Shown in pieces: positions 6,266 to 56,022 of a stretch of 64,000 nucleotides of DNA. The position numbers were made by a program, and so were the translations under genes. How positions within the stretch are numbered: position 1 is the first letter of the stretch; every line of letters begins with the position of its first letter. The notes beneath the pieces were generated by a model. That model saw only the letters and a program-made list of their open reading frames with translations, did not search any database and was not told the origin of the DNA. The stretch comes from Candidatus Nomurabacteria bacterium (GTDB lineage Bacteria > Patescibacteriota > Minisyncoccia > Phycocordibacterales > SBAW01): contig JADZGF010000003.1 in NCBI GenBank assembly GCA_020854065.1, positions 96,913 through 160,912 of the forward strand, in the 5' to 3' direction.

Positions 6266-7210
6266 ATGGATAAACCTAAAGCAACACCAAAGGATTTCTT
6301 CCTCTGGGCAGGGGCTATGCTCGCACTTTACGCAGGTGTGGTGGCCTTTATTGCCCTTATTTTCGACTATATTAACTACACCTTCCCGAACTCGCTTAAT
6401 TACTATGGCGATCCGTATGCGTCCGCAGCCTACGAGATGGCAGCACTGATCGTGCTTGCCCCAGTCTTCCTTATATTGATGCGGGCGATTCGCCGCGACA
6501 TTGCACGCGATAGCAGCCGCCAAGATATTTGGGTACGCCGCTGGGCGCTCTACCTTACCGTCTTTGTGGCAGGCGCAACGATTGTGATCGACCTCATTAC
6601 CCTCATCTACACCTTCCTTTCGGGCGAGGATCTCACTGCACGCTTCCTTCTTAAGGTATTAGTAGTGCTCCTTGTTGCAGGTGCAGGCTTCCTTCACTTC
6701 TACTCGGATATCAAGGGGTACTGGGTACGTGAGCCGCAGAAAGCAAAAATGGTTAATTGGGGGGTAGCAGTGGTTGTTATCGCCACTATTATCTCCGGTT
6801 TCTTTATCATCGGTACGCCAGGTGATGCGCGCGGATACCGCCTCGATGAGCAGAAGGTAAGTGACCTACAGACCATTCAATGGCAGCTGGTTAACTTCTG
6901 GCAGCAAAAAGAAGTGCTCCCTGCATCGCTCACTGAGCTTAATGATCCGATCTCTGGCTTTATACTTCCCGTTGATCCAGAAACAGGCGAGCCATACCGC
7001 TACGAGCGCACGAGCAACTCATCGTTCCGCCTTTGCGCTACCTTTAACGCTGAGGATCGCTACATTGAGCCAACCTACAGTCGTCCCGTTACCGCTATTC
7101 CTGAGGGAGAGAAGTATGGCGGCGACACATGGGAACACACAGCGGGTGAAGTCTGCTTTGATCGCACGATCGATCCAGAGCGCTACCCACCATATCGCCT
7201 GACTCGCTAA
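6266..7210 (+). CDS. DUF5671-like membrane protein with C-terminal pseudopilin (GspG/type IV pilin)-like region
   Basis: N-terminus KDFFLWAGAMLALYAGVVAFIALIFDYINYTFP plus about 4 TM helices matches the DUF5671 pattern common in Parcubacteria. C-terminal LPVDPETGEPYRYE...FRLCATF resembles the GspG DPWGxPY region. Confidence 0.55.
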   Translation: MDKPKATPKDFFLWAGAMLALYAGVVAFIALIFDYINYTFPNSLNYYGDPYASAAYEMAALIVLAPVFLILMRAIRRDIARDSSRQDIWVRRWALYLTVFVAGATIVIDLITLIYTFLSGEDLTARFLLKVLVVLLVAGAGFLHFYSDIKGYWVREPQKAKMVNWGVAVVVIATIISGFFIIGTPGDARGYRLDEQKVSDLQTIQWQLVNFWQQKEVLPASLTELNDPISGFILPVDPETGEPYRYERTSNSSFRLCATFNAEDRYIEPTYSRPVTAIPEGEKYGGDTWEHTAGEVCFDRTIDPERYPPYRLTR

Positions 7211-7262: not shown

Positions 7263-10061
7263 ATGGCTGAGCAGTATGACCACGAGTCGATAGAAAAGAA
7301 ATGGCAAGAGCGTTGGCGCGAATCTGCTGCTTTTAAAACTACTGAAGATCCGAAGAAACCAAAAACCTATGTGCTCGATATGTTTCCGTATCCTTCTGGT
7401 GAAGGGTTGCATGTCGGACATCCAAAAGGCTACATAGCGACTGATATTTACTCGCGCTATAAACGTGCGCAAGGACACAACGTGCTCCATCCTATGGGAT
7501 GGGATGCATTTGGGTTGCCGGCAGAAAACTTTGCAATCAAAAACAAAATACATCCACGCGCGGCAGTTGAGAAAAACATTGCAAACTTTAAATCGCAGCT
7601 TTCACATATTGGATTTGACTATGACTGGTCGCGAGAGATAAATACTACTGATCCGGAGTACTACAAATGGACGCAGTGGATTTTCCTGCAATTGTATAAA
7701 AAAGGTCTGGCATATCAGAGCAACGAGCCTATCAATTGGTGCCCGTCGTGCATGACGGGTCTTGCAAACGAAGATCTTGATGGAAACGTGTGTGAGCGTT
7801 GTGGCAGCGTGGTGGAAAAGCGCGCACTGCCGCAATGGGTACTGAAGATTACGGAGTATGCAGATCGCATGCTCAACGATCTCTCTTTGTTGCAGTGGCC
7901 TGAGCATATTAAAGAGGCGCAGCGTAACTGGATAGGTCGCTCAGAGGGCGCAGAGATTACGTTCACCCTCACCGATGGAGGATCGCTTACCGTCTTTACC
8001 ACACGCCCTGACACGCTCTTTGGTGCAACCTACATGGTTATCGCTCCTGAGCATGCGTTGGTAGAGAAATATGCTGATGCGGCAGTACGTACGTATGTCG
8101 AGAGTATAAAGAATAAGACTGAACTTGAGCGTACGGCTGAAGGGAAAGAAAAGACAGGTGTTCTATTGCCGGGTGTCAAAGCACTCAATCCTGCTACTAA
8201 ACAAGAAATACCGATCTATATAGCCGACTATGTACTCGGTAGTTATGGCACTGGTGCCATTATGGCTGTGCCGGCGCATGATGAGCGCGACTATGAGTTT
8301 GCTAAAACGTTCAATCTTCCAGTGGTACAAGTGGTTGTACCGTGCGCACCTGATGCTATTAATCCACCGAAAGAAGGATTGGAGGAAGTAAAACGAGACA
8401 CTGTTATTGTGCACCTACGAGATAAGTCGACGGGTAAGTATGCATTGCTCGATTGGCACGGATCGCTTGAAGGAATAACTACTGTGATTATGGGTGGTGT
8501 TGAGGAGGGGCAGACTCCGGAAGATGCTGCATTGGCAGAAATTAAAGAGGAGGCAGCACTAGACGCTTCGATTGTAAGTTCAGTGCGGTGGATTACCGCT
8601 GCGCGATATTGCGCTTCTCATAAAAATCAAAATCGTTGCGCCCATACGTGGGGTTTTCTTGCTGAGGTAGAAAGTATCGAAAAACAAGGTGCTATCTCTG
8701 AGAAAGAACAAGGTCTCCACACATTGGTATGGGTAGATGAAAAAGAAGTAGCGTCCCGCCTTACCCCTGCGCATCAAAAGCAGGTATGGTATTTGCTCCA
8801 CCACGATGAGGCTCTTAGTGGTCCCGGGTATCTGATTAACTCAGGCGAGTTTGATGGCTTAGACAGCGAAGAGGCAAAGAAAAAGATAACCGGGTCTGTA
8901 GGTGGCAAAGCCGTGGTGCAGTACAAACTGCGTGACTGGGTTTTTAGCCGCCAACGGTACTGGGGTGAGCCTATTCCGATCGTGCATTGTCCAAAAGATG
9001 GCGCGGTAGCGGTGCCTGAGGATCAGTTGCCAGTGCTGTTGCCTGAGGTAGAGAGCTATGAGCCGTCGGGTACCGGTGAGTCACCGCTCGCGAATATTGC
9101 TGAGTGGGTGAACACGACGTGCCCACAATGTGGCGGACCAGCAAAGCGGGAGACAAACACCATGCCGCAATGGGCAGGCAGCAGTTGGTATTACCTGCGG
9201 TTTATGGATCCGCACAATAACTCTGCACTCGTGGGTAAAGATAAAGAAAAATACTGGGCACCGGTTGATGTATATGTGGGAGGTGATCATGCGGTGCGCC
9301 ACCTTATCTACGCGCGCTTCTGGCATAAATTTTTGTATGACATTGGGGTCGTTACGACCGTTGAACCTTTTGCTCGACTTGAGTTTTTGGGCTTTATCCT
9401 GGCCGAGGATGGTCGCAAGATGAGCAAACGCTATGGCAATATCATCAACCCTGATGACGTGGTTGCGCAGTACGGCGCGGATGCATTCCGAGTCTATGAG
9501 ATGTTTATGGGTCCGTTTGAAAATACGGTCGCATGGAGCACTGCTTCTATCAAAGGTACCGAGCGTTTCATCGAGCGGTTGTGGCGGGCAAAAGAATTGG
9601 TGCAGGAAGATCCTGTTGAGGCGTTAGAAGTAGAGTTGCACCGCACTATTAAAAAAGTGGGAGAGGACATTGAGGCATTTAAGTTCAATACTGCCGTGTC
9701 GCAGATGATGGTGTTTCTTAATGCACTTGAGAGTGCAAAAGGTATTGGCAAAGAGCAGTGGCAAAACTACCTCACGGTGCTTGCACCATATGCGCCACAT
9801 ATTGCACACGAGTTGGCCGAGCATCACGGGTTAGATATTAGCCAGTGGCCAACCTATGACCCTTCAAAGCTCACTTCAGCGCTCGTTACCGTTGCGGTGC
9901 AGGTAAATGGGAAGTCACGTACCACCATTGAACTTGCGCCTGATGCACCCGAAGCCGAGGCAATAGCGCTGGCGAAGGTTGCGGCGGCTAAATGGATAGG
10001 GGAGGGTGAACCTAAAAAAATCATCTACGTTCAAGGGAGGGTCATAAACGTGGTCGTTTGA
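7263..10061 (+). CDS. leuS: leucine--tRNA ligase with inserted Nudix-like domain
   Basis: HVGHPKGY (HIGH), CP1 editing-domain motifs (TTRPDTLFGATY, AVPAHDERDYEFA), KMSKRYGN (KMSKS) and C-terminal anticodon-binding region. A roughly 165-aa insertion at aa 355-522 contains a Nudix-box-like GGVEEGQTPEDAALAEIKEEAAL. Confidence 0.93.
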   Translation: MAEQYDHESIEKKWQERWRESAAFKTTEDPKKPKTYVLDMFPYPSGEGLHVGHPKGYIATDIYSRYKRAQGHNVLHPMGWDAFGLPAENFAIKNKIHPRAAVEKNIANFKSQLSHIGFDYDWSREINTTDPEYYKWTQWIFLQLYKKGLAYQSNEPINWCPSCMTGLANEDLDGNVCERCGSVVEKRALPQWVLKITEYADRMLNDLSLLQWPEHIKEAQRNWIGRSEGAEITFTLTDGGSLTVFTTRPDTLFGATYMVIAPEHALVEKYADAAVRTYVESIKNKTELERTAEGKEKTGVLLPGVKALNPATKQEIPIYIADYVLGSYGTGAIMAVPAHDERDYEFAKTFNLPVVQVVVPCAPDAINPPKEGLEEVKRDTVIVHLRDKSTGKYALLDWHGSLEGITTVIMGGVEEGQTPEDAALAEIKEEAALDASIVSSVRWITAARYCASHKNQNRCAHTWGFLAEVESIEKQGAISEKEQGLHTLVWVDEKEVASRLTPAHQKQVWYLLHHDEALSGPGYLINSGEFDGLDSEEAKKKITGSVGGKAVVQYKLRDWVFSRQRYWGEPIPIVHCPKDGAVAVPEDQLPVLLPEVESYEPSGTGESPLANIAEWVNTTCPQCGGPAKRETNTMPQWAGSSWYYLRFMDPHNNSALVGKDKEKYWAPVDVYVGGDHAVRHLIYARFWHKFLYDIGVVTTVEPFARLEFLGFILAEDGRKMSKRYGNIINPDDVVAQYGADAFRVYEMFMGPFENTVAWSTASIKGTERFIERLWRAKELVQEDPVEALEVELHRTIKKVGEDIEAFKFNTAVSQMMVFLNALESAKGIGKEQWQNYLTVLAPYAPHIAHELAEHHGLDISQWPTYDPSKLTSALVTVAVQVNGKSRTTIELAPDAPEAEAIALAKVAAAKWIGEGEPKKIIYVQGRVINVVV

Positions 10062-10098
10062 CAGTGTGATTTAGCGTGATATATTAGACCACACCAAT

Positions 10099-11145
10099 AT
10101 GGCAACCGCGACCGGAGAGAAAACCGACTTCAAACCGAAAGCTATCGTCAAAAAACTCCTTATGGCGCTCCCTGAGCGCTCTCGTACTGTTCTTGAGGCC
10201 CGTTTCGGGCTAGGTGCTTCCCCAGAGCGCGTAACGCTTGAAGCGATCGGCAAACGCTATGGCATTACCCGTGAGCGTGTTCGCCAGATCGAGAACCACG
10301 CCCTTGCATCGCTTAAGAAATCACCTGCATTCAACGCAGCAGAAGGCGCCTTCCAGGAATTGGAGCGCATTATCGACGGACTTGGCGGCATCGTCTGCGA
10401 AGATGATCTCTTGGACTACATGACCAAGGATCAGTCGATGCAAAACCATATCTACTTCCTTTTGGTGCTCGGCGATCCATTTAAATACCGCAAAGAGGAT
10501 GAGGAGGTTAACCGCTGCTGGTATGTCGACAAAGACCTTGCAGAGAAGGTTGAGAATGCACTTAAAAACCTCTACGCAGGACTCTCTGACGAGGATCTCA
10601 TCCCTGAAGGTGAGATGGTAGATCGTTTCCTTAAAGAGCTTCAGACTATCAACGACAAGCATCGCAATGATGAGGTCTTGCGCCGTTGGTTGCGTATCTC
10701 AAAAGGTTTGGGCAAGAACCCGTTGGGTGAGTGGGGTCCTGCGAAGTCGCCTAACGTAAAGACGAAGGGTGTTCGCGACTTTGCCTATTTGGCCGTTAAG
10801 AAGCATGGTTCTCCATTGCACTTCCGCGAGGTAGCAAAACTCATCGAAAAGATGTTTGATCGCACGGCACATGTTGCCACGACGCATAACGAGCTCATCA
10901 AAGACAACCGCTTTGTACTTGTTGGTCGCGGTATGTACGCGCTTAAAGAGTGGGGCTATACCCAAGGCGTAGTCCGCGATGTTATCCGCGAGGTATTGCG
11001 CAGTGGTGGTCCTATGACCAAAGAGGCAATCATCGAGAAGGTGCTTAAAGAGCGCCACGTAAAACCAGGCACGATTGTAGTGAACCTGCAGAACCAGAAA
11101 TATTTCAAACGAGGGAAGGACGGAAAATTCTCACTCGTTAAGTAA
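10099..11145 (+). CDS. sigma-70 region-4 (HTH) domain protein with C-terminal HARE-HTH-like domain
   Basis: N-terminus LEARFGLGASPERVTLEAIGKRYGITRERVRQIENHALASLKK is a classic sigma-70 region 4.2. C-terminus (aa 228-300: DFAYLAVKKHGSPLHFREVAKLIEKMF...FVLVGRGMYALKEW) matches the HARE-HTH / RpoE-delta N-domain pattern. Confidence 0.6.
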   Translation: MATATGEKTDFKPKAIVKKLLMALPERSRTVLEARFGLGASPERVTLEAIGKRYGITRERVRQIENHALASLKKSPAFNAAEGAFQELERIIDGLGGIVCEDDLLDYMTKDQSMQNHIYFLLVLGDPFKYRKEDEEVNRCWYVDKDLAEKVENALKNLYAGLSDEDLIPEGEMVDRFLKELQTINDKHRNDEVLRRWLRISKGLGKNPLGEWGPAKSPNVKTKGVRDFAYLAVKKHGSPLHFREVAKLIEKMFDRTAHVATTHNELIKDNRFVLVGRGMYALKEWGYTQGVVRDVIREVLRSGGPMTKEAIIEKVLKERHVKPGTIVVNLQNQKYFKRGKDGKFSLVK

Positions 11146-11170
11146 AAATCCCCATAGTGAGGATTTTTTA
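11145..11170. terminator. bidirectional rho-independent terminator
   Basis: AAAATCCCCATAGTGAGGATTTTTTAT between convergent genes. Confidence 0.55.
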
Positions 11171-11446
11171 TATCGTAAACAAGTTACCAATAGCTCTGAG
11201 TATTTGCCAGAGAGTAAAGAGGAATACCATTGCCCAAAAGCCCCAGGTGATATGGACGCGATTATGTTCGATATGCTCCTCGTGACTGGAGAGGGTAAAA
11301 AAGTGGGGCACACCTGCAAGTAATCCGCGCAAAAAGGTTAAAAAGGCGAGCGCTCCCAAGAAGGAGAACATGAGGCCTAGATACCACACAGGATCAGATA
11401 CGATACTCACGGCGAGTGCATCCATACTCAAGGTATACTGTAGCAT
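11168..11446 (-). CDS. small two-TM membrane protein (hypothetical)
   Basis: Track ORF 11168..11614 trimmed to ATG at 11446 (MLQYTLSMDALAV...). Two hydrophobic helices. The longer form would overlap the divergent gene. Confidence 0.3.
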   Translation of the reverse strand: MLQYTLSMDALAVSIVSDPVWYLGLMFSFLGALAFLTFLRGLLAGVPHFFTLSSHEEHIEHNRVHITWGFWAMVFLFTLWQILRAIGNLFTI

Positions 11447-11453
11447 ATAGACT

Positions 11454-12902
11454 ATGGCATCTCCCGGTGGTGGGTACAGTAAATTTCCGTGGTGGAAGAA
11501 AGTCCTCTTTGTGTGGACGCACGATGGTTCTGCGGCGTTTGCAAAATATATAAATGATTGGGCCTTTGATCCGCTTGCCGTTATCCCGGTAGCGTTTCTC
11601 TTTTTTATAAGCATTGCGGTTGCGGTCGATCCTCAAGCGGTAGAGGCGACATTGGCGATGGTGATATTCCTCTCACCAATATGGCTTCCACTGTTTCTCT
11701 TTGTGTTCTTCTGGGTGACGTGGATGCACTACATTCGCTTTTTGTTTTGGTTTAAAGCCGAAATGTGTCTCCTTGAGATTCAGTTGCCACCAGAGGTCAC
11801 CAAATCGCCGTTGGCCATGGAGCTCTTCTTGACCTCGCTTCATAACGCAGGAGGTGAAGCAACCTTTATCGCCCGTATTTGGAAAGGGAGCTTCCGTCCC
11901 ATTTGGTCGCTTGAGATAGCGAGCAATGAAGGACGAATCGGCTTTTATATCCATCTGCGACGCAATTGGCGCAGCATTATCGAAGCGCGTCTTTATGGTC
12001 AGTTTCCTGAGGCAAAAATCACTGAAGTTGAAGATTATGTACACAAAGTACCCTTTAATCTCGAGGAGTACGATATTTTTGGTGCCGAGTATAGCAAAGG
12101 AGAACCTCAGGCGCTGCCTATTAAAAGCTATATAGACTATGGGCTCGATAAAAACACAGACACGCCGGAGATACAGATCGACCCGATTACGAACTTGGTC
12201 GAGCTTTTGGGCAATATAGGCAAAGACCAATATTTCTGGATGCAGATTATTGTAAAACCGTTTAAGAAAGAGGAGTGGTACGGTTTTTATCGCTCCCACG
12301 ATCCATTTAAAGAGGGTGCAAAGAAAGGTATCGCTGATATCACTAATAAGGCAATTGCGCGTGCACAAGAGCTAACAGGGGATGAGGCCGAAAAGAAAAA
12401 AGTCGGTACCCGTGGCGCCATGCTTCTCTCTCCAGGAGAGAAAAACCAAGTTGAAGCAATTGAACGCTCCCTTACCAAACTGTTGTTTGAGTGTGGTGTC
12501 CGCGTACTCTATATCTCAAAAAATACAGTGAGTTCCCGTGATCCGTATCATGGCACTAACAACGGCGCGTTAATTCGCTTTTTTGATGCGTATAAGCAAC
12601 CAGGGTACAATGGCCTAGGTGTAACCAGCCGGCTGAGTACGTATTTTGATTATCCGTGGCAAGACTGGATGGATATCCGTCAAAATATCGAGAAGAGAAA
12701 TGCCTGGTTCCGGTACAAACATCGCGCATATTTTTATGTCCCGTATGATCAGGTGCCGGTCTATATGACCACTGAAGAATTGGCAACAATCTGGCACTTC
12801 CCAAGTTCTGTCGTCAAAACCCCTGCACTGGATCGTGTTCCTTCTCGTCGTTCCGAAGCGCCCATCAATTTACCGACCGGGCCATCAAATTTACCTGTAT
12901 AG
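11454..12902 (+). CDS. membrane-anchored hypothetical protein (N-terminal TM helices plus roughly 400-aa soluble domain)
   Basis: Hydrophobic N-terminus then an uncharacterised domain (…YHGTNNGALIRFFDAYKQPGYNGLG…). Alternative start at ATG 11658 would avoid overlap with the - strand ORF. Confidence 0.5.
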   Translation: MASPGGGYSKFPWWKKVLFVWTHDGSAAFAKYINDWAFDPLAVIPVAFLFFISIAVAVDPQAVEATLAMVIFLSPIWLPLFLFVFFWVTWMHYIRFLFWFKAEMCLLEIQLPPEVTKSPLAMELFLTSLHNAGGEATFIARIWKGSFRPIWSLEIASNEGRIGFYIHLRRNWRSIIEARLYGQFPEAKITEVEDYVHKVPFNLEEYDIFGAEYSKGEPQALPIKSYIDYGLDKNTDTPEIQIDPITNLVELLGNIGKDQYFWMQIIVKPFKKEEWYGFYRSHDPFKEGAKKGIADITNKAIARAQELTGDEAEKKKVGTRGAMLLSPGEKNQVEAIERSLTKLLFECGVRVLYISKNTVSSRDPYHGTNNGALIRFFDAYKQPGYNGLGVTSRLSTYFDYPWQDWMDIRQNIEKRNAWFRYKHRAYFYVPYDQVPVYMTTEELATIWHFPSSVVKTPALDRVPSRRSEAPINLPTGPSNLPV

Positions 12903-55948: not shown

Positions 55949-56022
55949 CGGGCTGTAGTATACCGGTAGTACGCATGCATGGGGTGCATGTAGACCGGGT
56001 TCGATTCCCGGCAGCCCGACCA
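55949..56022 (+). tRNA. tRNA-Pro (anticodon GGG)
   Basis: Hand-folded cloverleaf: acceptor CGGGCTG/CAGCCCG, U8, D-stem GTAT/GTAC with GG in loop, anticodon stem CATGC/GCATG, loop AU-GGG-GU, T-arm CCGGG-TTCGATT-CCCGG, discriminator A, encoded CCA. 74 nt. Confidence 0.8.

Follow-up and report, generated by a model that had tools for sequence, protein, structure and literature searches.

Results

The leuS locus and a Nudix domain nested within its editing domain

The window analyzed here, a stretch of 64,000 nucleotides (64 kb) from a Candidatus Nomurabacteria bacterium (contig JADZGF010000003.1, positions 96,913 to 160,912), carries on its forward strand a leuS gene (7263..10061, +) which encodes a bacterial-type leucyl-tRNA synthetase (LeuRS) of 932 residues with a Nudix-fold domain inserted into its CP1 editing domain. 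The open reading frame was assigned to TIGR00396 (leuS_bact) with a score of 986 bits, against a curated cut-off of 548, obtained in two stretches, and Pfam analysis returned tRNA-synt_1, the editing domain PF13603 (208 bits) and Anticodon_1. A full-length AlphaFold2 (AF2) model of this insert host (mean pLDDT 88.6, pTM 0.79) superposed on the LeuRS of Thermus thermophilus, Neisseria gonorrhoeae and Escherichia coli (query-normalized TM-scores 0.69-0.74). An identical entry in NCBI nr, MCC7500325.1, is named 'leucine--tRNA ligase [Candidatus Nomurabacteria bacterium]', which places the source among the metagenome-assembled genomes of Patescibacteria (Parcubacteria).

Alignment with T. thermophilus LeuRS (1h3n) matched window residues 3-359 to T. 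thermophilus 2-363 and window residues 516-714 to T. thermophilus 375-579. Between these blocks the nested Nudix domain, comprising the 156 residues 360-515 (8340..8807, +), takes the place of a surface loop of CP1 that is 11 residues long in T. thermophilus (364-374). The first part of CP1 (residues ~221-359; 7923..8339, +) was covered by a PF13603 stretch of residues 221-362, profile positions 1-144 of 185, and the insertion falls at about position 144 of that profile. The remainder of CP1 comes after the insert together with the return to the catalytic core, including INSGEFDGL (residues 516-~560; 8808..8942, +), as a second PF13603/TIGR00396 stretch which aligns from T. thermophilus 375 onward. 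The arrangement is a double nesting, with the Nudix domain inside CP1 and CP1 inside the Rossmann fold. An initial annotation, made from the sequence alone, had described an extra segment in this LeuRS. The segment is real, and the strings and coordinates quoted for it were right within a few residues, but it had been placed at the junction of CP1 and the catalytic core, whereas it sits in a loop within CP1.

The Nudix family PF00293 matched the whole protein with 29.5 bits and the insert alone with 33.2 bits (E 6e-8), both above the gathering score of 21.1. An AF2 model of the insert, computed from a 40-sequence alignment of inserts (pLDDT 94.8, pTM 0.88), displayed the alpha/beta/alpha sandwich with loop-helix-loop catalytic motif of the Nudix fold, and Foldseek comparison of this model with the PDB returned Nudix proteins only, with a probability of 1.00. 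These results confirmed that the insert, previously described as Nudix-like, is a complete and genuine Nudix-fold domain. No further copies of its Nudix subfamily were found within the 64-kb window.

The motifs of the synthetase itself were intact, both for synthesis and for CP1 editing. The HIGH motif of the synthetic site (HVGH, residues 50-53; 7410..7421, +) was invariant in the LeuRS alignment, as were K719, M720, S721 and K722 of the KMSKS motif (KMSKR, residues 719-723; 9417..9431, +). In CP1, the Thr-rich editing motif TTRPDT (residues 246-251; 7998-8015, +) and the AHD editing motif AVPAHDERD (residues 335-343; 8265-8291, +) were both present; T246, T247, R248, D250 and T251 were at least 90% conserved in an alignment of LeuRS relatives, and D340 was invariant. 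The leucine-specific domain which precedes KMSKS is typical of the T. thermophilus and E. coli enzymes and is not universal. In the alignment to 1h3n, no counterpart of this domain (T. thermophilus 580-637) was found in the window LeuRS, where residues 714-720 (9402-9422) span the gap left by it. Relatives of the window LeuRS likewise lack the leucine-specific domain that is present in T. thermophilus and E. coli.

Distribution, authenticity and selection

The presence or absence of the insert in an alignment of related Patescibacteria LeuRS had been set beforehand as a check on the annotation. The 120 closest LeuRS proteins (60-95% identity), retrieved with the full-length query, were drawn from independent NCBI, JGI, ENA and Logan assemblies, and 107 of them carried an insert of near-constant length in the same place. 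Ratios of non-synonymous to synonymous substitution rates (dN/dS), calculated against the orthologue at locus L009 (91% amino-acid identity), were 0.044 for the insert, compared with 0.040 and 0.043 for the N-terminal and C-terminal parts of the core, respectively; these ratios are rough, as dS is high (0.8-1.6). Purifying selection on the insert is clearly as strong as that on its essential LeuRS host. The insert is not an artefact: it is present in 107 of 120 LeuRS from independent assemblies, and it has the same dN/dS as the LeuRS core.

We also considered whether the insert could be a selfish or mobile in-frame element of the intein type, or arise from misassembly. The several insertion sites and the rapid gain and loss described below would fit a mobile element, as would a DUF559 endonuclease-like insert in one relative. 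Nevertheless, no intein, Hint or homing-endonuclease domain was matched by Pfam on the window protein or on the insert, no direct or inverted repeats or mobile-element scars flank the insert, and its G+C content (0.47-0.48) is that of its flanks. With the catalytic residues under purifying selection and the in-frame insert present in more than 100 independent assemblies, this explanation is improbable in the extreme.

For the wider distribution, a query of a 5.8-billion-protein index with the insert alone returned nothing at E <= 0.001, which reflects the sensitivity limit of the word index and not absence. A profile of the insert searched against 1.84 billion representative proteins matched 184 clusters at E <= 1e-30, a number that rose to 700 when the threshold was relaxed to E <= 1e-10. 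The best 150 profile matches were mapped with LeuRS N- and C-terminal probes, which matched 117 of them; of 10 longer remainders scanned with Pfam, seven proved to be LeuRS editing-domain fragments, and the rest of the 150 were short stand-alone proteins (126-207 residues), multi-Nudix proteins and a few others. No host other than LeuRS was seen for this Nudix subfamily among the best 150 matches. Nudix-bearing LeuRS is present in hundreds of related ultra-small bacteria, and within a large clade of Patescibacteria it is the form that most members carry.

Nudix box and family signature

The Nudix box GGVEEGQTPEDAALAEIKEEAAL (residues 411-433; 8493..8561, +) was identified from the sequence and from conservation within the family. 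It reads G-X5-Q-X7-A-E-I-K-E-E-A-A-L and departs from the full consensus GX5EX7REUXEEXGU at three positions (E to Q417, R to A425 and the last G to A432), while the glutamates of the REUxEE helix, E426, E429 and E430, are all present. The earlier comparison with the MutT box, in which the EUxEE glutamates were kept and the Arg and last Gly replaced, was accurate; the Gln in place of the GX5E glutamate is a further change. Across the 107 LeuRS inserts, G411, E426, E430 and K454 were invariant and E429 was present in 105. Positions 417 and 425 co-varied among these inserts, with E/R in 33, whose boxes are fully canonical, and Q/A in about 43, a pattern which looks like the joint swap of a second-shell pair and not like erosion. 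Canonical E/R/G boxes, found in 33 of these 107 close relatives, made up about 127 of the 218 copies overall at the same insertion site.

Outside the box, a subfamily signature HKxxNR was found at residues 453-458 (8619..8636, +), in which K454 is invariant and N457 and R458 are near-invariant. Further near-invariant positions among the 107 inserts were W398 (8454-8456, +), E468, and E482, H486 and W490 (8706-8732, +). The metal-binding Glu triad and the signature residues were kept at every LeuRS site and in free homologues (271 domain copies). We infer that HKxxNR together with W398, E482, H486 and W490 forms a basic and aromatic substrate pocket. Since the Glu triad and the W...HKxxNR...E...H...W signature are essentially invariant, the insert is likely to be an active enzyme, a metal-dependent hydrolase.

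Conversely, the insert could be a dead pseudo-Nudix, retained as a structural or RNA-binding module which stabilizes CP1 or adds a tRNA contact, and the initial annotation had allowed that it may be inactive. The three off-consensus positions of the window box (E to Q, R to A, G to A) are what such a module might display. Against this stand the near invariance of the Glu triad and of K454, N457 and R458 over some 270 copies, the fully canonical boxes of roughly a third to a half of the relatives, selection equal to that on the LeuRS core, and the existence of free homologues. A catalytically dead module is very unlikely on these grounds, and activity is the likelier state.

Kinship within the Nudix superfamily

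Searches with curated subfamily models assigned the insert to none of the characterized Nudix groups, the models for MutT, RppH, NudC, YtkD and others giving 12-17 bits where 98-259 are required. Scores against the MutT 8-oxo-dGTPase models were 12.8 bits for TIGR00586 (cut-off 97.9) and 14.0 bits for PRK10776 (cut-off 148), and those of the window insert against RppH/NudH models were 12-17 bits, with NCBIfam cut-offs of 116-259. RppH was nonetheless the most frequent weak NCBIfam match, obtained with 37 of 40 inserts (best E 2e-9). When the insert profile was compared with PDB sequences, AvrM14-A/B ranked first (E 1e-9, with a whole-domain alignment that includes the K..R motif), followed by lupin Ap4A (diadenosine tetraphosphate) hydrolase; RppH, AvrM14 and other decapping enzymes were also among the structural neighbours. 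The neighbours by structure and sequence are thus ApnA hydrolases, diphosphoinositol polyphosphate phosphohydrolases (DIPPs) and RppH/decapping enzymes, which act on long polyphosphate chains (ApnA, diphosphoinositol polyphosphates (PP-InsP)) or on 5' RNA ends. This kinship points weakly to a class of substrate and does not amount to membership. Relative to the free members of that group (Rv2985, T. thermophilus Ndx1, lupin 1f3y, E. coli RppH and flax-rust AvrM14) and to the Enterococcus faecalis protein 2azw, the window domain shows 15-22% identity; it has a signature of its own and a box in which the consensus E, R and last G are replaced, and it is nested where they are free. The EUxEE glutamates and the W...HKxxNR...E...H...W signature appear to define a Patescibacteria-specific Nudix subfamily to which the insert belongs.

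These neighbours raise the alternative of an RNA-end enzyme, which would act as RppH does and strip the 5' end of tRNALeu, or of another RNA bound to LeuRS, of its pyrophosphate or nucleotide cap. The recurrent RppH matches and the decapping enzymes among the structural neighbours agree with it. In addition, all insertion sites lie in peripheral LeuRS modules, which in LeuRS-tRNA structures surround the acceptor-stem side of the enzyme. Its RppH scores, at about 16 bits, are far beneath the 116-259 of the cut-offs, and bacterial tRNA 5' ends are normally monophosphates made by RNase P, which are no Nudix substrate. We regard a dedicated RNA-end enzyme as quite improbable.

A weak match to the PADLOC model PDC-S07, a candidate phage-defence protein, was observed with 25 of 40 inserts (best E 4.9e-9) and not with the window insert; it probably reflects merely the common Nudix fold.

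Multiple insertion sites and their bearing on proofreading

The same Nudix subfamily was found at five or more LeuRS sites, given here as window residues: site A after ~209, site B after ~238-241, site C after 359, which is the site in the window and the commonest, site D after ~577 and site E after ~618-628. Sites A, D and E are outside CP1. Some LeuRS carried two tandem Nudix copies or three copies (three in P0121 and P0122); multi-site or multi-copy relatives were P0121-P0132, P0146, P0200, P0205, P0225, P0269 and P0270. Copies within one protein were 20-46% identical and were often nearer (50-63%) to copies at other sites elsewhere or to free proteins. From the low identity within a protein and the higher identity across organisms, several independent insertions or transfers can be deduced.

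The initial annotation had suggested a novel proofreading function, and the location inside the editing domain would fit a role in which the Nudix domain hydrolyzes misactivated aminoacyl-adenylate or aids post-transfer editing by CP1. The occurrence of the same domain outside CP1 argues against such a role, as do the CP1 editing motifs, which are intact by themselves, and the insert-less close relatives, which keep CP1 and work without the insert. Moreover, a Nudix enzyme needs a pyrophosphate linkage to cleave, which aminoacyl-AMP does not contain. A part in proofreading is accordingly highly improbable.

Free homologues, gain and loss

The free-standing form of the subfamily is about 160 residues long and keeps even the linker residues. 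A gene for a free Nudix protein of 163 residues immediately precedes leuS, in the same orientation, at two loci (L001 and L002) and on a contig of JGI 3300071358. At L001 and L002 the free protein (P0273) lies upstream of an insert-less LeuRS of 807 residues, in the synteny of the window (free Nudix 8001-8492 and leuS 9071-11494, or 9023-11494, in L001; 7246-7737 and 8316-10739 in L002). In one case the free Nudix gene (P0174) stops 1 nucleotide before a leuS that bears its own insert. Strict complementarity of split and fused forms, in which a free Nudix would always offset an insert-less LeuRS, was considered and rejected: it holds in L001 and L002 and fails at three other loci. In L001 the gap of ~530-580 nucleotides between the Nudix gene and leuS contains no convincing open reading frame. 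The insert-less LeuRS of L001 has a degenerate Thr-rich motif (YDSVPQTFMAQTF, compared with TTRPDTLFGATY in the window) and NCSAHDERD in place of AVPAHDERD, and its CP1 may be editing-defective.

Insert-less and insert-bearing LeuRS were interspersed. Core identity was 87-91% for the minus/plus pairs P0069/P0020, P0103/P0072, P0100/P0051 and P0081/P0014, reaching 91% in the first two. In the insert-minus proteins the site was occupied by unrelated fillers of 20-110 residues or showed a clean deletion; P0103 keeps both insert flanks, which points to a deletion. The insert site is a hotspot at which domains are rapidly gained, lost and replaced.

The synteny around leuS is kept in the clade and comprises a YchF-type GTPase, a DUF5671 membrane protein, leuS, a Sigma70_r4/HARE-HTH protein, DUF8128, YceG and MnmA; it was observed in the window (6266-7210 and 10099-11145) and at L009, L010, L012 and L013. 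Only one tRNA gene, tRNA-Pro (anticodon GGG, 55949-56022), was found in the whole 64-kb window.

Other domains in the LeuRS loops

Alternative inserts confirmed by Pfam in the LeuRS loops of relatives were a PF06821 serine hydrolase, a HAD phosphatase-like domain, Ham1/ITPase and a DUF559 endonuclease-like domain, and further divergent Nudix domains also occupy these loops. In this clade LeuRS evidently acts as a scaffold on which small hydrolases accumulate, many of them enzymes of nucleotide 'house-cleaning'. A module of ~133 residues with the motif TIETRALNPEEPERYFG, ASCH-like by reading only and without a Pfam match, was also observed in these loops, together with several unassigned inserts of 120-250 residues for which Pfam likewise gave no match. 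Relatives with other inserts included P0048, P0061, P0066, P0097, P0140, P0145, P0152, P0161, P0170, P0171, P0190, P0195 and others.

Discussion

The reading that we favor, tentatively and at a little less than an even chance, is that the insert is an active Nudix pyrophosphohydrolase tethered to LeuRS, which cleaves nucleoside-5'-polyphosphate compounds. E426, E429 and E430 would bind divalent metal, and the basic and aromatic residues of the signature would hold the substrate for hydrolysis. Aminoacyl-tRNA synthetases (aaRS) make Ap4A from aminoacyl-adenylate and ATP, and RppH/NudH-type enzymes also cleave 5' RNA ends that are polyphosphorylated or carry an Np(n)N cap. The likeliest substrates would be dinucleoside polyphosphates of the Ap4A type, or else such RNA ends. 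LeuRS would serve as tether and expression platform, putting the hydrolase beside the source of these compounds, and the Nudix domain, whose subfamily has entered LeuRS repeatedly, would stand outside amino-acid proofreading. The data show what the domain is, how it folds and where it is nested, the strong purifying selection on it, its conserved catalytic residues, its confinement to LeuRS hosts or free genes among the best 150 matches, and that LeuRS can do without it; that it is active, which substrates it takes and whether it is coupled to LeuRS are our inference.

Several observations weigh against this proposal. The box of the window protein is itself without the consensus E, R and last G, and the Q/A/A variant may be kinetically altered, with activity possibly reduced in this protein. 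None of the curated Nudix subfamily cut-offs (MutT, RppH, NudC, YtkD, NudB and others) was reached by the insert, and no function is known for 2azw, its nearest structural match. The LeuRS of E. coli makes Ap4A only weakly. The neighbouring Nudix gene is absent at three insert-less leuS loci of the same synteny, and the distant free homologues P0275, P0276 and P0277 do not adjoin leuS, the gene after P0275 being an epimerase-like Rossmann protein and not LeuRS. Because insert-less LeuRS are up to 91% core-identical to insert-bearing ones, the coupling is dispensable and the module accessory and evolutionarily labile. Finally, the unrelated hydrolases in the same loops fit permissive loops and opportunistic fusion equally well.

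Opportunistic fusion is the main rival. The insert would then be a hitch-hiker, an independent house-cleaning Nudix enzyme with no functional tie to leucylation, carried in insertion-tolerant LeuRS loops and assured of co-expression from an essential gene in small-genome Patescibacteria. The PF06821, HAD, Ham1/ITPase, DUF559 and, by our own reading, ASCH-like domains in the loops of relatives suit this explanation, and so do the close relatives that lost the insert with no replacement nearby, the free homologues unlinked to leuS, and the divergence of copies within one protein, which would be expected if specificities had diverged. It accounts less readily for the confinement of the subfamily to LeuRS hosts or free genes among the best 150 profile matches, for entry at five sites and as tandem copies, a pattern suggesting that tethering was selected repeatedly, for the free copies directly upstream of leuS, and for a presumed substrate-pocket signature that is kept in all copies. 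On balance we consider a hitch-hiker somewhat unlikely.

Beyond the tethered pyrophosphohydrolase, a wider reading can be put forward, which we hold to be speculative and on the whole doubtful. Parcubacteria-type LeuRS might be a modular platform which couples aminoacylation to the surveillance of nucleotides and RNA ends, the Ham1, HAD, serine-hydrolase and ASCH-like inserts of relatives acting, like the Nudix domain, on products or ligands of the synthetase. Candidate ligands would be Ap(n)A, Np(n)N-capped or 5'-triphosphorylated tRNALeu and non-canonical NTPs. If true, a bacterial aaRS would contain a step of quality control or salvage that has so far gone unrecognized, and selection for such coupling would account for the repeated, independent insertion at five sites.

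The window LeuRS resembles canonical LeuRS (1h3n/2bte and E. coli 4aq7) in its HIGH and KMSKS motifs, in ZN1, in a CP1 that bears the Thr-rich and AHD editing motifs, and in its C-terminal tRNA-binding domain, with ~38% identity to the T. thermophilus and E. coli enzymes and TM-scores of 0.7-0.8. It differs in carrying a 156-residue Nudix domain for an 11-residue loop and in the missing leucine-specific domain. A partial parallel is NadM-Nudix (PRK05379, weakly matched by a few inserts), in which an adenylyl-transferring enzyme and a Nudix domain for an adenine dinucleotide-type compound share one polypeptide; NadM has an HxGH Rossmann fold from the superfamily that includes the class I synthetases. 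That fusion is terminal and its substrate, ADP-ribose, is known, whereas the window domain is nested two levels deep and its substrates are putative. Other synthetases with accreted domains, such as IleRS-GNAT (NF040702), likewise show an essential enzyme scaffolding a domain unneeded for aminoacylation. Eukaryotic aaRS carry GST, WHEP and EMAPII domains, and LysRS takes part in an Ap4A signalling axis. Most of these accreted domains sit at a terminus, have no catalytic role or occur in eukaryotes. In the window protein a predicted catalytic hydrolase lies inside a bacterial editing domain; in relatives it is multi-copy and multi-site, and it is often lost.

Accretion of accessory domains by aaRS and Nudix hydrolases as such are both known, and it is the unusual setting of this Nudix domain that is new. 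Bacterial aaRS are usually held to be architecturally conservative and domain accretion is treated as a eukaryotic theme. The initial annotation knew of no described Nudix module in LeuRS, and in the literature searched (full text) we found no description of one in LeuRS or any aaRS of Patescibacteria or the Candidate Phyla Radiation (CPR). The module is not rare, however, and precomputed Pfam annotation already flags the architecture, in proteins named 'leucine--tRNA ligase' or 'class I tRNA ligase family protein'; some relatives owe the latter PGAP name to the nested Nudix architecture. In a survey of domain insertions from 2026, CP1, the editing domain of LeuRS, is classed as 'insertion-exclusive' and never as a host (PMC13114784).

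An essential bacterial synthetase thus contains a second, apparently active enzyme, as predicted here, inside an editing domain which is an insertion itself. If the Nudix domain acts on Ap(n)A or RNA ends, it would tie the removal of dinucleoside polyphosphates, directly and physically, to their main cellular source, and this in organisms of minimal metabolism. If it does not, nature would still have run a striking experiment on the insertion of domains, with LeuRS pairs which differ in the insert and match at 91% core identity, and the family would provide a useful map of the permissive sites of LeuRS.

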